Shown here in pieces: positions 17,091 to 30,934 of a DNA stretch of 40,367 nucleotides. The position numbers and the translations under genes were made by a program. The notes under the pieces are model-generated. The model did no database searches. It saw only the letters and a list, made by a program, of their open reading frames with translations, and had not been told where the DNA came from. The stretch is from a virus, in the IMG/VR virus record IMGVR_UViG_3300045988_046182, positions 1 through 40,367 of that record; one strand, given 5' to 3'. Each line of letters starts with the position of its first letter. Within the stretch, counting starts at the first letter, position 1.

Positions 17091-17420
17091 TTATTTCTCC
17101 TCCCAAAACTTTTCTATCTCATATTGACTTATTTTTCTCGCTTTTTCTCTTTCAATTCTTTCGAGTTGCCTTACTATCTTAGCCTCTTTTATAAACTCTA
17201 AATGATTTAATTCTGAATCCGTCATAAACAGTTTTAGCTGCTCTAGCATTATTTCCACATCTGCAATCTCTTCAACAAAATTCTCTTGGAAATGTAAGTC
17301 ATTTCTAACACACTTAGAAATTGCAAGCATTAACTCCGCCAACTCTTCTTGCGTTTGTCTTAACTGTGGTTCTTTGCCATAATAGTTGGCAATTTGAATT
17401 AGTTTTGATTCTCTATTCAT
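17091..17420 (-). CDS. MazG-like nucleotide pyrophosphohydrolase
   Basis: EELAELMLAI...EEIADVEIML, matching the MazG EEXXE/D pattern. Confidence 0.55.
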   Translation of the reverse strand: MNRESKLIQIANYYGKEPQLRQTQEELAELMLAISKCVRNDLHFQENFVEEIADVEIMLEQLKLFMTDSELNHLEFIKEAKIVRQLERIEREKARKISQYEIEKFWEEK

Positions 17421-17451: not shown

Positions 17452-17480
17452 ATTATAACATACTTAATCATCTTGTCAAT
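17452..17480 (-). promoter_or_regulatory. Promoter cassette copy (TTGACA-17-TATAAT)
   Basis: Minus strand ttgacaagatgattaagtatgttataattaaattgtaaa. Confidence 0.55.
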
Positions 17481-18841: not shown

Positions 18842-19327
18842 TTATCTAACCTCCACTAACTCAAATCTATCTTTAAACTTGTTGTATATCTTGTCCCATT
18901 CCTCTTGAGATATACCACCGCAGATATACTTCTCTTCCAAGTTATAAAGGCATTGTCTTAGATATATGTCGTTATGCCAACCGTTATAAAGATTATTTTC
19001 TTCAATTATAGTTTTTGCGTATTCTATTTTATTAGGAAAAATGAATTTATAACTTCTTTCTCTGCAAAACTCATACAAGTCATTAAATTTAACCACAGAA
19101 TACTTGTAACCTCTTTTCTTGAATTCCTCACACACTTCGCAAGCAAATTTAAATAAGTGAAGAAAATCATAATCCATAACCTTATTAACCAATACATGGT
19201 TTGGAGTTCCTTTCTTTTCTATCGCTCCCTTTATAGCCAATATTTCTCTCCATTGTGCTACCAACTGTTGTTTAGGTAGTACCTCAATCAATTCTTTATG
19301 CCAAATTCTCATTTTATCAACCTCCAA
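18842..19327 (-). CDS. Pyrimidine-dimer DNA glycosylase (T4 DenV-like, TIGR02328-type) family protein
   Basis: N-terminal RIWHKELIEVLPKQQLVAQWREILAI resembles the DenV-family N-terminus. Confidence 0.4.
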   Translation of the reverse strand: MEVDKMRIWHKELIEVLPKQQLVAQWREILAIKGAIEKKGTPNHVLVNKVMDYDFLHLFKFACEVCEEFKKRGYKYSVVKFNDLYEFCRERSYKFIFPNKIEYAKTIIEENNLYNGWHNDIYLRQCLYNLEEKYICGGISQEEWDKIYNKFKDRFELVEVR

Positions 19328-19373: not shown

Positions 19374-19397
19374 CAATTTTATTAAAAAGACTAGATT

Positions 19398-19724
19398 TTA
19401 CTCTAGTCTATAAACTTTATTTATTTTTTCCCAAGTATTTCTCCTAACTCTTTTATCTCTTATCTCTACACCTAAATAAGTATGATAAGGTATTCCTATA
19501 AGTTTAGTGGCTTCTTCAATAGTTAAACCTAACTCTTTACGTTTAGCTTTTATCTTTTCTCTATCTATAAAAACATCTTTCATAGTCTTTCTTGATTTTT
19601 CTCTAGCTTTTTCCTTTAAACATTCTTTACACATAGATCTATAACCATCTTTCCCTTGTGGGTGGTGATAGAAATTAGTTTCTATATCTTCGAATGTTTT
19701 ATTGCAATTAGTACAAGTTTTCAT
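19398..19724 (-). CDS. Zinc-ribbon plus XRE-type HTH protein
   Basis: CTNCN...CKEC and LGLTIEEATKLIGIPYHTYLGVE. Confidence 0.4.
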   Translation of the reverse strand: MKTCTNCNKTFEDIETNFYHHPQGKDGYRSMCKECLKEKAREKSRKTMKDVFIDREKIKAKRKELGLTIEEATKLIGIPYHTYLGVEIRDKRVRRNTWEKINKVYRLE

Positions 19725-21430: not shown

Positions 21431-21992
21431 TCAATTCAACCTCCACATTAAAATTTCTTAAAAGATAATTTCTAACTTCATAATATAAAGTGTTGTATAT
21501 CTCGCTCCCCATATATTCACTTGGTATTGCTTCTATAGTAGTGTTGTATTCAGCTTCAAAGCCTTTTATCCTAGCGTGTAATGTTTTAGGCTCATACCTA
21601 CTTCTATACTTCCCTTCTCTTAAATGCTTATGAAATAATTTATCCTCTATAAACAATCTAACCTTAGTATTATTAGCTTTTAAAATAGCAAATTCTTTAC
21701 TTATTCTTGGATAATCAGAAGTACTGAAATTACTTGCTATTTCATCTATAGATGCCTTTCTTTCTACTACTATAAGCTTATCAAAGTACAAATCTCTTTC
21801 TATGCCTTTCAGAACACCTTTAGGGAGAAAACAACTATAATCTCCTTGTTCTAATTTCTGAACCTTAAAAGTTTTTTTCTTAGCCTTAAACCACGCTAAT
21901 ACGTGGTCGTTGGCTTTTTCTCTTGTATCAACTATTATAGTTAAGTCTTTTAATGCTTTTTTTATTTCTGTTTCAGTAAATCTATATCTCAT
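21423..21992 (-). CDS. ERCC4-type (XPF/Mus81-like) nuclease, putative recombination-intermediate resolvase
   Basis: IIVDTREK...LEQGDYSCF...IVVERKASIDE motifs. Confidence 0.5.
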   Translation of the reverse strand: MRYRFTETEIKKALKDLTIIVDTREKANDHVLAWFKAKKKTFKVQKLEQGDYSCFLPKGVLKGIERDLYFDKLIVVERKASIDEIASNFSTSDYPRISKEFAILKANNTKVRLFIEDKLFHKHLREGKYRSRYEPKTLHARIKGFEAEYNTTIEAIPSEYMGSEIYNTLYYEVRNYLLRNFNVEVELNE

Positions 21993-22582
21993 TATTTTTG
22001 AACTTTCTCCAATCTACTACAAATATTATCGTACTGTTCTTTAGTCATTTGACTTATATCAGATACTCCAAACTCTTTAACGCATTGTGCTGTTATAGTT
22101 GCTTGATTTATCCCTTTAGACTTTCCTATAGCGAACAATCTGCTTAATTGCTTATCTGATAGACCTTCCTTTGGTTTAGAACTTCCATGAGTAGTTAAAT
22201 TCGCATCATCATCTTCGCCTGTATTAAGATTTAAAATAGCTTGATATGAATATCTTCTAAGATAAGTTATTAAGCTACCTGCTTGTTGTGGGTCGTTTTT
22301 AACTGGTTTCATGAATAACGGTTCACTCTCTATATATTCCCCGCTCTCATGCAGTAAAATAGTTTGTATTCCTATTTCTCCAGTTTCCTTACTCAATGGC
22401 ATTTGTAAGACTGACAAACCGTTTTTCTGTAATATATCTCTAGTCGCTAATATAAGCTTATCAAGTGTTACATAATCGCTCTTAAAAAATGGATTTTTAG
22501 CATCTTTTGATATACTTGTTACTTCGGCATTGAACTTCGCTAAAGCAACTGCTAATTTAACTATTGTTTCACTTCTATTCAT
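21992..22582 (-). CDS. ERF-family single-strand annealing protein
   Basis: KDAKNPFFKSDYVTLDKL motif typical of ERF proteins; position next to Gp157 and ssb. Confidence 0.5.
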   Translation of the reverse strand: MNRSETIVKLAVALAKFNAEVTSISKDAKNPFFKSDYVTLDKLILATRDILQKNGLSVLQMPLSKETGEIGIQTILLHESGEYIESEPLFMKPVKNDPQQAGSLITYLRRYSYQAILNLNTGEDDDANLTTHGSSKPKEGLSDKQLSRLFAIGKSKGINQATITAQCVKEFGVSDISQMTKEQYDNICSRLEKVQK

Positions 22583-22640: not shown

Positions 22641-23132
22641 TTATCTTATTTTTAAACTTTCCTCTTGTACTAATTTAGCTCCTTCTATAATTTCACCATT
22701 CTTTAAAGCTTCTTTAAGCATTTTCTTATCTATACTAGGAGTATTTATAATAAATTGCTTTGGTATGGCATTTAAATCCTCCACAACCGTCTTAGGAGGG
22801 TTTTTCTTTATACTTACAGTAAATATTCCTCCTTTAACTTCTCTCTTCTCTAATCCGTTTATAGTGTCAAATAGATAGCCTTGTAAGTTTTCAATCTTAT
22901 TCTCTCTTATCTTTCGTTCTCTTGCTAATCTTTTTTCTTCCGCTTTTAACGCTTCCGCTTCTGCTTGTAGGTTTTTAATTAATCTCACGATATTTTCTAC
23001 CTTTGTAGATAAATCGCACTCTAATCCTTTCATAGAGTTTATAACTAACTCTTTTAAATTTTCATCTTCTCCCGCATTTTCTAAAACTTGTTGTAAGTTT
23101 CTAAAGTTTTGTGATAATTCATAAAGTTTCAT
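22641..23132 (-). CDS. Siphovirus Gp157-family protein
   Basis: MKLYELSQNFRNLQQ N-terminus and coiled coil; partner of the ERF/SSB module. Confidence 0.5.
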   Translation of the reverse strand: MKLYELSQNFRNLQQVLENAGEDENLKELVINSMKGLECDLSTKVENIVRLIKNLQAEAEALKAEEKRLARERKIRENKIENLQGYLFDTINGLEKREVKGGIFTVSIKKNPPKTVVEDLNAIPKQFIINTPSIDKKMLKEALKNGEIIEGAKLVQEESLKIR

Positions 23133-23353: not shown

Positions 23354-23383
23354 AATACCTCCTTGATGTTCTCTACAAGTATA

Positions 23384-23411
23384 ATTATAGCATACTTAAT
23401 TATCTTGTCAA
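23384..23411 (-). promoter_or_regulatory. Promoter cassette copy
   Basis: Minus strand ttgacaagataattaagtatgctataat. Confidence 0.55.
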
Positions 23412-23509
23412 CACTTTTATTAAAAAAATAATTATGGGGTGATAATGTGAAAATATTTTATTTCGTTATTCGCCTTGGAACATCTTTGAACCATTATAAG
23501 AAATAAAAA

Positions 23510-23850
23510 TTAATCACTTACTACATTTACTACAAAAACTACATCATTTTCTATATAGCACATTTTTATATAAAATATATATATTAATTTATTATTTATA
23601 ATAAAGTCTTATAATTTAATGTAGTAAATGTAGTAAATATATATAAAGTGTTGGTATCACTAGCTTACAAAGGGTTTTAAAAATGTAGTAATTATGTAGT
23701 AAAAAATGTAGTAAGCTTAAAAATGTAGTAAATATTTTAATTAATCATGAATTGATTGGTAACATTTTGTTTATAATTAAGTGTAGTAAATGTAGTAAAA
23801 CTACAAAAATGTAACTTAAAAATGTAGTAAATGTAGTAATAAAAAAAAGA
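23510..23850. repeat. Iteron array B, paralogue of array A: about 10 direct and 2-3 inverted AAAATGTAGTAA units plus an AT-only core
   Basis: 23531-23555 (inverted), 23618-23637, 23681-23733 and 23781-23845. Block identity to 7460-7850 is roughly 85%, except for one 15-bp segment that is inverted. Confidence 0.85.
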
Positions 23851-23882
23851 CACCTATTAAGTGCCTTTATAATGGTTTATTT

Positions 23883-24011
23883 ATATTGTTGTTTGTAGAG
23901 CATCATAGTATAATTCTTTAAATACCTAGCATACTCATAAGCTTCCTTTGTAGTCTTGCAAGTCTTTGTTTGTAATAATTCGTTAGCGATTTTATCAATA
24001 TTCTTCATAAA
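23883..24011 (-). CDS. Small protein (43 aa)
   Basis: GGAGG RBS. Confidence 0.25.
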
Positions 24012-24064
24012 AAATACCTCCTAAAGCTTTATATTTTATATATATGCTCTAAGAGGTAAAAAGA

Positions 24065-27040: not shown

Positions 27041-27787
27041 TTATTTATTCAAAAACTTATTTATAAAATATTGTTGTCCTTTTCCTGTAACCTTAGGAGT
27101 TCGTGAAATACTTATTGTTCCGTTAGAATGATTTATTGTAGTTTCTTTTATTTCAAACAATCCTAATCTCATTGATTTTTGAGTTGGCATATTATAGTCG
27201 GTACAACTAGCTTTAACTAGATAACCATTTTCTCTTAACCACTTATAAAACTTCTTTTCTCCTGTATCAACTCCATTTTGCTTTAATATCTTAGCCATTT
27301 CTCTTACTAAAATAGTTGTTTTACTTGTGCTTACTGAATCAGCAAACAAAACCTTAGGGGCGTTCTCTTCTTTTTCTTGTAGCAACTTCGCTTTCTCTTC
27401 TTCACTTGCTACTAAAGCCTTTAAAGCGCTTAAATAGTCTTGTGGTAACTGCGGTGTGGAAATTTCTCTTAATTTCTTTTCGCACTCTATAAAATACAAT
27501 CTAAATCTTTTACCAATCTCGTTTCTTTGTATCATTGAAATTTCTTTTGCCATATCTATTGTAATTATATGAGTTTCTATGAATCTATTTACTAATCTTG
27601 AACCTTCTCTTTTTTGAGAAAGTTCCTCTATAGTAGTAAAATCAACATTTTCCTCAAAACCATATTCACACATTCTCTTGAACCAATCTTGATATTTAGT
27701 TTTTATCTCTAATCCTTCATGTAATTCTCTAGCGTTTACTAATTGTTGTCCTTGTTCATTTGTAGTTATTTTTATTAACTCTTTCAT
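27041..27787 (-). CDS. Phage antirepressor / regulatory protein (Rha-like N-terminus plus KilA-C domain)
   Basis: N-terminal LVNARELHEGLEIKTKYQDWFKRMCEYGFEENVDF; C-terminal KILKQNGVDTGEKKFYKWLRENGYL. Confidence 0.6.
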   Translation of the reverse strand: MKELIKITTNEQGQQLVNARELHEGLEIKTKYQDWFKRMCEYGFEENVDFTTIEELSQKREGSRLVNRFIETHIITIDMAKEISMIQRNEIGKRFRLYFIECEKKLREISTPQLPQDYLSALKALVASEEEKAKLLQEKEENAPKVLFADSVSTSKTTILVREMAKILKQNGVDTGEKKFYKWLRENGYLVKASCTDYNMPTQKSMRLGLFEIKETTINHSNGTISISRTPKVTGKGQQYFINKFLNK

Positions 27788-30644: not shown

Positions 30645-30673
30645 TAGTTTTATATAAAAAAAGAGAGATATCT

Positions 30674-30934
30674 CTATCCCTCTAAAATCTTCTTAATTAA
30701 TTCTTGATTTTCCCAAGCTTTAGATAATTTCTTATAAGCTTTATTTCTATAATTGGTAACACTTTTAATACTGCAATCTATTTTTATAGAAGCTTTCTCT
30801 TGTGTCATACCCCTTATATCAACTAATTCAATCGCTAAACGTTCCTTGTCTTTAAGGTTAACCAATTCTAAGGCTAACATTAGAAGAGGTTTAGAAGGGC
30901 AATTAAGCACCTTCTTTATATCTTCTCTATTCAT
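30674..30934 (-). CDS. Sigma-70 region-4-only (HTH) transcription regulator, 86 aa
   Basis: KERLAIELVDIRGMTQEKASIKIDCSIKSVTNYRNKAYKKL fits the region 4.2 pattern (L..ReR.v..L...G.t.eEIA..lg.s..tVk...hrA.kkL). Confidence 0.5.
   Translation of the reverse strand: MNREDIKKVLNCPSKPLLMLALELVNLKDKERLAIELVDIRGMTQEKASIKIDCSIKSVTNYRNKAYKKLSKAWENQELIKKILEG

Follow-up and report, generated by a model that had tools for sequence, protein, structure and literature searches.

Reiterated sigma-A-type promoters with a lineage-specific spacer block in a phiCP39-O-like phage of Clostridium perfringens

Why does one phage genome carry a nearly identical promoter-like cassette about a dozen times, and why does the likeness extend into the spacer between the two hexamers? 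The question arises for the window analyzed here, which is the whole 40,367-nucleotide stretch of IMG/VR virus record IMGVR_UViG_3300045988_046182. By megablast, the window belongs with the Clostridium perfringens siphophages phiCP39-O, phiCP26F and HMD-PC1 and their group, with 93-96% identity over most of its length. Its GC content is ~30%, and the minus strand holds almost all of the genes. Positions 1-55 are identical to positions 40313-40367, an overlap of k-mer length; the window is therefore a circular assembly of ~40.3 kb, and the true genome is ~40,312 bp. C. perfringens phages of this group have been studied as sources of therapeutic lysins, with nothing published on their transcription; the comparative paper on the group describes the regulation of transcription as unknown and reports no promoters (PMC3118219).

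How many copies are there, and could they have arisen by chance? A consensus scan of the window for TTGACA-N16/17-TATAAT returned 12 sites with all 12 hexamer positions matched (minus strand, 11; plus strand, 1), whereas 300 dinucleotide-preserving shuffles gave a mean of 0.11 perfect sites and a maximum of 2. One further copy is degenerate (TTTACA-18-TATAAT). A pattern that includes the spacer, TTGACANNNTNATTAA...TATAAT, has 8 matches, compared with 0.01 expected. The original prediction of a reiterated consensus sigma-A-type promoter is thus borne out, and each cassette that it placed is present and was located correctly to within one base; only its strand split, 10 minus-strand copies and 1 plus-strand copy, has to be amended. 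The aligned consensus reads aatAAAAtTa-TTGACA-AgATAAtTAAgT-(4-5 nt)-TATAAT-TAAatTgTAAataa, then GGAGG, with A/T tracts upstream and a TGn element in the versions with a 16-nt spacer. All 12 sites are intergenic, except that P20620 lies at a gene end, and all are co-oriented with a downstream ORF or terminated RNA; most directly follow a predicted intrinsic terminator (Table 1). A Shine-Dalgarno sequence and ATG lie within ~20-35 nt at nine of the 12 sites, one site (P20620) has a ~100-nt leader, and the other two lead into a short terminated RNA. The cassette-headed units also include a MazG-like unit and unannotated small early ORFs; for most early ORFs, Pfam and PHROG give no function. The 12 sites are very likely to be sigma-A promoters.

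Table 1. Predicted promoters in the window and the units that they head. Class A denotes sites that carry the spacer block.
Site	Positions	Strand	Promoter features	Context and downstream unit
P38443	38416-38443	-	class A; TTGACA-16-TATAAT; block AGATAATTAAAT	after terminator 38461-38482; 157-aa moron 37908-38381, between tape-measure and tail genes
P30644	30617-30644	-	class A; 16-nt spacer, TGn; block AGATAATTAACT	after terminator 30662-30683; first promoter for a run of small early ORFs, 30586 down to 28613
P28097	28069-28097	-	perfect hexamers; unrelated spacer AAACACAAAAAT; conserved downstream TAAAATGTAAA	83-aa ORF and AntA/KilAC protein 27041-27787
P23411	23384-23411	-	class A; block 12/12, TGn	end of iteron-rich non-coding region; 73-aa ORF and Sipho_Gp157 22641-23132
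P22640	22612-22640	-	class A; 17-nt spacer; block AGGTAATTAAGT	Erf 21992-22582, ERCC4-type nuclease, ThyX
P20620	20592-20620	-	perfect hexamers; diverged block AAATAAATCAAT (8/12); conserved TAAATTGTAAA	overlaps thyX end; leader, then small ORF, SSB, Zn-ribbon/HTH protein
P19373	19345-19373	-	class A; block 12/12; 17-nt spacer	after terminator 19388-19409; DenV-like glycosylase 18842-19327 (insertion relative to most relatives), then CHC2 primase-like gene
P17479	17452-17479	-	class A; TTGACAAGATGATTAAGTATGTTATAAT then TAAATTGTAAA	site named in the original prediction; 17091-17420 and next two ORFs, as far as terminator 16133-16152
P9907	9879-9907	-	perfect hexamers; block degraded, shifted 1 nt (CGATAGTTAAGT)	~80-nt non-coding RNA ending at terminator 9810-9828
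P9791	9764-9791	-	class A; block ATATAATTAAGT, TGn	directly after terminator 9810-9828; 50-aa ORF 9594-9746; read-through may reach VapE-like helicase unit
P9342(+)	9342-9370	+	class A; block AAATAATTAAGT; sole plus-strand copy	41-aa ORF 9402-9527, ending at terminator 9526-9546; antisense to helicase-unit leader
P7411	7383-7411	-	perfect hexamers; unrelated spacer	~70-nt non-coding RNA with terminator hairpin
Degenerate copy	7275-7304	-	TTTACA-18-TATAAT, TGn, then TAAATTAT	upstream of 7035-7223, scaffold gene, capsid genes
TGnTATAAT	37868-37876	-	no -35	directly after terminator; upstream of tail genes, unit starting 37850
TGnTATAAT	16107-16115	-	no -35	directly after terminator; upstream of terS
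TGnTATAAT	12710-12718	-	no -35	not directly after terminator; upstream of unit starting 12690
TGnTATAAT	7275-7283	-	partial -35, TTTACA	directly after terminator; upstream of unit starting 7223
TGnTATAAT	5377-5385	-	no -35	directly after terminator; upstream of unit starting 5353

How far does the likeness reach beyond the hexamers? Conservation had been predicted in the spacer and in the initially transcribed region, and it is found in both, but it is not universal. A 12-nt block, AGATAATTAAGT, abuts the -35 hexamer in the eight class A sites, with 11-12 of 12 positions kept; the 13-mer that had been singled out, AAGATAATTAAGT, includes the final A of the -35 hexamer. Among the other perfect promoters, the block is diverged in P20620, degraded in P9907 and absent from P28097 and P7411. 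The sequence TAAATTGTAAA after the -10 hexamer is common to most block-carrying sites. In pairwise comparison, the eight class A paralogs average 0.88 identity across the block and 0.30 at baseline; the values nearby are 0.51 for the 20 nt upstream, 0.45 for the 4 nt that follow the block, 0.54 for the 11 nt past the -10 hexamer and 0.40 for the leader. Whole cassettes are only 47-77% identical pairwise over ~58 nt, with none of the 66 pairs at 80% or above, and are therefore not recent wholesale duplicates; in an ungapped comparison, a single pair (D1) reaches 85% over 52 nt. The block is also unlike typical spacers. Among 36 unselected perfect promoters from unrelated AT-rich loci, the match to it averages 3.9 of 12 positions and never exceeds 7, and the G residues at block positions 2 and 11 occur in 3% of them.

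Constraint on the block looks different when orthologs, rather than paralogs, are compared. At class A sites, ortholog variation amounts to 1/96 in the hexamers, 10/96 in the block, 7/88 in the downstream 11 nt and ~0.20 in the flanks. The block thus varies about half as often as the flanks and far more often than the hexamers; mosaic breakpoints raise the flank rate, so that any real constraint on the block is moderate at best. The block does not occur away from promoters in the window: ATAATTAAGT with up to 1 mismatch has 24 matches versus 19.6 expected, and the strong matches are all in promoters or background. In some copies only, the block nearly repeats the -10 hexamer and discriminator (8-9 of 11 positions identical).

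Three other features of the cassette were considered and rejected. A hairpin or dyad (TTGACAAG...CTTGTAAA, with two TAATTA) is not a general feature: only P22640 folds significantly (z -5.2), 6 of 10 cassettes have no fold at all, dyad scores of 11-14/18 are found in five copies only, and the dyad of the block with the start region is partial. An antisense promoter inside the cassette was dismissed by eye, since the inverted TTTACA lacks a -10 element at a usable distance. Comparison by eye with Rex, Fur, PerR, CodY, Spo0A and LexA boxes gave no fit to the block.

Where else is the cassette found? All cassettes are position-conserved in at least 10 related phages, and in IMG/VR the multi-copy pattern is restricted to phiCP39-O-like contigs; one unrelated phage family of ~40% GC in the same database has a single orthologous look-alike promoter. 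A bacterial scan with one genome per species gave 45 single matches in diverse taxa, none multi-copy, and the pattern is not matched exactly anywhere in the one representative C. perfringens genome that was scanned. A host chromosomal motif was rejected on these counts. Distant relatives were reached by way of an 86-aa sigma-region-4-like protein. The sister lineage L088 is syntenic with the window phage at 34-73% amino-acid identity; its early promoters are heterogeneous and imperfect, and the block is absent. At the orthologue of P30644 in L098, L099 and L100, the terminator, TTGACT and a 16/17-nt spacing are kept, and the spacers are wholly different; a "CTA" just before the -35 hexamer is also kept in L098 and L100. 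Since sister-lineage promoters are imperfect and have unrelated spacers, the perfect hexamers and the block are derived in the phiCP39-O clade.

Other parts of the cassette are shared more widely. A 56-nt cassette query has 82-84% matches to two annotated promoters, early promoter EP6 of lactococcal phage c2 and the "Staphylococcus-specific promoter" of Staphylococcus phage ISP; unannotated intergenic sites of Bacillus phage G and of Staphylococcus phage 6ec match it just as well. The parts common to these Firmicute-phage matches are TTGACAA(G/A), (TGT)TATAATTAA and an A/T-rich start region ending in TAAATAA; for example, phage G has TATAATTAAATTATAAATAA and the window has TATAATTAAATTGTAAATAA. 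The downstream layer recurs in unrelated Firmicute phages and therefore characterizes strong promoters of these hosts in general.

Reiterated near-consensus promoters for the host polymerase, with extra homology specific to one promoter class, are a classical feature of lytic phages (e.g., T5, and A1-A3 of T7). The window resembles lactococcal phage c2 (EP1-EP6) and the Staphylococcus Kayviruses (K/ISP) in having many near-consensus, co-oriented promoters with extra shared sequence around the hexamers. Its promoters are of a known kind of phage early-promoter family, in an unstudied phage group, and the conserved spacer block sets them apart: unlike the promoters of c2, Kayvirus, T5 and T7, they carry a clade-specific 12-nt block that is unseen in those phages. 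They also differ from those early-promoter families in that some copies lie among the morphogenesis genes, in the helicase island and at the tail moron, and in being predicted from sequence. A useful comparator for reiterated phage promoters is an unrelated 13.8-kb viral contig of 30% GC (L029, IMGVR_UViG_3300028805_000742), which has 14 perfect TTGACA-17-TATAAT promoters at 800-7600; its upstream A/T tracts and leaders are conserved, and its spacers are free.

The window has a second set of promoter-like sequences. TGnTATAAT occurs 19 times versus 5.5 expected, with 18 of the 19 on the coding strand, and five copies with no -35 or a partial one, all on the minus strand, precede packaging, head and tail operons (Table 1). 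The copies upstream of terS and of the unit starting at 5353 both read TATG(G/A)TATAAT(G/T)TAGATAGAAAG, and L088 also has the late type, a terminator with TGnTATAAT. Early perfect-hexamer sites and late -35-less TGnTATAAT sites therefore make up two promoter classes on sequence grounds. Phage-driven switches from -35-dependent to extended -10 promoters have been described for T4 AsiA and for gp39 of Thermus phage P23-45 (PMC3950348). The window is like these systems in having two sequence classes, early perfect -35/-10 and late TGnTATAAT, between which a switch would take place. It is unlike them in that AsiA and gp39 act on sigma region 4, not on spacer sequence, and no AsiA or gp39 homologue was recognized among the window proteins with Pfam and PHROG.

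Which phage proteins might act on these promoters? Only three candidate DNA-binding regulators were found: the 86-aa protein, a 108-aa protein with a Zn-ribbon and HTH_3 (a Pfam match below the cut-off) and the AntA/KilAC protein. The 86-aa protein (30674-30934, minus strand) has a sigma-70 region-4-like HTH, with a Pfam match to Sigma70_r4_2 at E = 6e-5, below the cut-off; its best PDB match, a weak one, is a sigma factor. It is 98-100% identical across clade members and 58-73% identical in sister lineages, and its gene always has the lysis genes on one side and the first early promoter on the other, an arrangement that the relatives with 58-73% identity share. An attempt to tie the block by co-occurrence to the sigma-4-like protein or the Zn-ribbon/HTH protein failed, as L088 has homologues of both and no block.

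How might the cassettes work? We suggest that they serve as phage promoters for the host housekeeping (sigma-A) RNA polymerase early or midway through infection. Each cassette would head a short early/middle transcription unit bounded by intrinsic terminators, and the units would together supply host-takeover ORFs, recombination, nucleotide metabolism, replication, two small RNAs and two morons. With perfect hexamers, such promoters would need no activator and would be expected to fire on entry. The shared sequence can be read as two layers. First, TTGACAA, (TGn)TATAATTAA and the A/T-rich start would form a layer common to strong Firmicute-phage early promoters, and this layer probably reflects polymerase binding and escape. 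Second, the block AGATAATTAAGT next to the -35 hexamer, which is specific to the phiCP39-O clade and held in 8 non-homologous positions, would be under selection as a cis-element and would mark out a single class of co-regulated promoters. A phage-encoded protein would sit on the block, between the -35 and -10 hexamers, and would shut the class A promoters as transcription moves to the -35-less TGnTATAAT late promoters. Driving early genes with host RNA polymerase, as the cassettes very probably do, is a fairly ordinary phage strategy. The account as a whole, in which host sigma-A early/middle promoters carry the block as an operator-like cis-element of one class, is offered tentatively, at a little short of an even chance.

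Is the block a phage operator? The suggestion is possible but doubtful. In its favor, the block stands out among paralogs from the sequence on either side of it, and its position suits repression. There is also evidence against it: four equally perfect promoters lack the block, no block lies outside promoters, the block is less constrained among orthologs than the hexamers, and the dyad is inconsistent. Among three readings, the operator is slightly favored because the block has sharp boundaries and its conserved G residues are atypical. A more specific form of the idea, a link to a phage repressor or to a Rha/KilAC antirepressor circuit, had been proposed and is not supported. The gene annotation of the window contains no integrase, no CI/Cro-type pair and no CI-like repressor, and the antirepressor morons of the clade use block-less promoters (TTGCAA-N17-TATAAT, TTTACA-N17-TATAAT and TTGACA-N17-TATACT). 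The 427-aa "integrase" of some annotations was rejected as such and is instead a VapE-like helicase. The "stoperators" of mycobacteriophage L5 are repressor sites repeated across a phage genome. The block is like them in being a short asymmetric sequence, present in ~8-9 copies, with one orientation relative to transcription and an association with promoters. It is a repeated sequence, as stoperators are, but its sites are not independent of the core promoter: unlike the L5 sites, all window copies lie inside promoter spacers and none stands alone, and there is no recognizable repressor gene. A small DNA-binding phage protein that represses the phage's own host-polymerase early promoters is known from T7, where Gp5.7 acts on A1-A3 (PMC5569994).

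The block may instead need no extra protein. It could, together with TAAATTGTAAA, tune the binding, opening or escape of the C. perfringens sigma-A polymerase, whether through spacer conformation, through a second -10-like GATAAT, or through the A/T-rich discriminator and initially transcribed sequence. Such effects have precedents: spacer and initially transcribed sequence modulate the output of sigma-70 promoters (PMC3130263; PMC12464699), and perfect-consensus promoters are escape-limited and sensitive to the initially transcribed sequence (PMC12464699). Recurrence of the downstream layer in strong promoters of unrelated Firmicute phages speaks for this explanation, as do the occurrence of the block only as part of a promoter, its near-repetition of the -10 hexamer and discriminator, and its moderate constraint, which would suit a modulator. 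It fits less well with the unrelated perfect promoters that do without the block and whose spacers vary freely, with the four perfect promoters of the window genome that lack it, with the G residues at positions 2 and 11, which are atypical for spacers, and with the lack of an exact pattern match in the C. perfringens representative genome scanned. On balance, we regard a purely promoter-intrinsic element as rather unlikely.

A third explanation is common descent. The ancestor of the phiCP39-O clade may have had its older, weaker promoters overwritten by copies of one optimized ~40-bp core, and the block would have come along with that core, with no specific function; short-patch recombination would be the route, with the phage Erf/Gp157 system as a candidate for it. 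Conversion of older promoters in short patches could leave a pattern that looks like selection on the block. In sister lineages, the promoters at orthologous positions have imperfect hexamers and unrelated spacers, and the cassette is therefore derived and spread within one lineage. Consistent with copying, the sub-families D1, D3 and D9 have leader or terminator sequence in common over 32-72 nt, and the constraint on the block among orthologs is weak. Propagation of promoters is itself documented: putative mobile promoters are stretches of 50-100 nt with at least 80% identity, located ahead of genes that are not homologous (Matus-Garcia et al. 2012, PMC3488235). The window promoters are like these in being similar to one another upstream of non-homologous genes in one genome, and in being lineage-specific. 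They are unlike them in that the similarity is concentrated in ~40 bp and every cassette pair falls below 80%. This low identity, and its abrupt fall in the 4 nt after the block, also weigh against descent as the reason for the conserved block, and variation in the block, in the rest of the spacer and in the downstream part is unlinked among copies. Moreover, every clade member already has all of the copies, and the spread is therefore not recent. Inheritance without function is, in our judgment, unlikely, and slightly more so than a promoter-intrinsic role.

Could the repeats matter for recombination rather than for transcription? The promoter/leader/RBS repeats might serve mainly as homology patches for swaps or insertions of gene cassettes, which is close to the cassette-wise gene acquisition that had been proposed. 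That proposal holds in part: two insertions lie directly behind cassettes and have duplicated leader/RBS flanks, but other cargos often bring other promoters. GGAGGTT(A)GATAAAATG repeats lie on both sides of the DenV-like gene that follows P19373, and in phage CPQ4 a 37-nt leader repeat brackets an additional gene just after the P38443 orthologue. Cassettes coincide with homology breakpoints at 19319, 20620, 30654-30662 and 38453-38456. However, most breakpoints are elsewhere, at gene boundaries and terminators; with ~5 of roughly 45 breakpoint clusters at cassettes, enrichment there is not compelling and was rejected. What is duplicated is leader and RBS sequence rather than the block, and in the tape-measure/tail slot the alternative cargos have different promoters. 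Recombination at these sites would be a by-product of the repeats and gives no reason for perfect hexamers, and we consider it improbable as the main explanation. The related suggestion that every early operon carries the same portable promoter does not hold, as some early units lack a cassette.

The least probable reading, and one that we give very little weight, is that the 86-aa sigma-4-like protein, whose gene is the last ahead of the early region, would read the -35 hexamer and the block (TTGACAAGATAATTAAGT) in competition with region 4 of host sigma-A at class A promoters, and that transcription would then flip to the late promoters. Such a switch would parallel those of AsiA and gp39 at the level of DNA. 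Against this reading, sister lineages have the protein (58-73% identity) and no block.

What are the implications of the promoter map? First, it amounts to a testable model of gene expression, with 12 consensus early/middle promoters, terminator-bounded units and a -35-less late class. Second, it supplies C. perfringens genetics with ready-made promoters that are compact and very strong. Third, if the block is an operator, one of the many early ORFs without annotation would be expected to encode a new phage regulator; otherwise, the cassettes are another case of phages reiterating optimal host promoters.

Several further features of the genome lie close to the cassettes. The RNAs downstream of P9907 (9800-9872) and P7411 (7305-7376), both on the minus strand and ~70-80 nt long, are conserved in relatives and are candidate phage small RNAs. 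Their 5' parts are unstructured, CU-rich and anti-Shine-Dalgarno-like (UUCUCCUUUGAUAAA and UACCUCCAAACGAUAAA), and each has a terminator hairpin; neither matches Rfam. Across the window, no Rfam-type RNA families or tRNAs were found at gathering thresholds, and the only RNA-family matches, two at chance level (E < 1), are within 7200-11000. The P9342(+) unit is back-to-back with a weaker minus-strand promoter, TTTACA-18-TATTAT, at 9297-9326. Both lie in a replication island within the head-gene cluster (7876-9907), which holds the VapE-like helicase, two promoters, a small RNA and the sole plus-strand unit; in the distant relative L088, the helicase sits after the primase instead.

The DenV-like pyrimidine-dimer DNA glycosylase gene (18842-19327, minus strand; Pfam Pyr_excise, E = 1e-19) is missing in all five full relative genomes compared (L001-L003, L082 and L083). 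The leader and small ORF after P20620 (20320-20498, minus strand) have 86% identity to the C. perfringens podophages vB_CPP_X44 and vB_CPP_AT, which are otherwise unrelated to the window phage. A non-coding stretch at 10013-10158 has ~81% identity to Staphylococcus and Mammaliicoccus phages and gave no match in an Rfam intron search. It adjoins a 225-aa ORF (10198-10875), which the phiCP39-O annotation calls an HNH endonuclease and which several relatives lack; together, the two are probably a mobile segment tied to a homing endonuclease.

Lastly, two non-coding regions of ~650-710 nt, at 7224-7875 and 23354-24064 (minus strand), are paralogous, being ~81% identical over ~340 nt. Each has a terminator at its start, a very A/T-rich core and a perfect promoter at its end (P7411 or P23411). 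The iteron-like sequence TTACTACATTT occurs in 10-12 copies per region, some of them inverted, with 24 in the window versus 4 expected. The two regions look like a duplicated replication origin; one origin-like copy adjoins the VapE-like helicase, and the other is upstream of the recombination genes.
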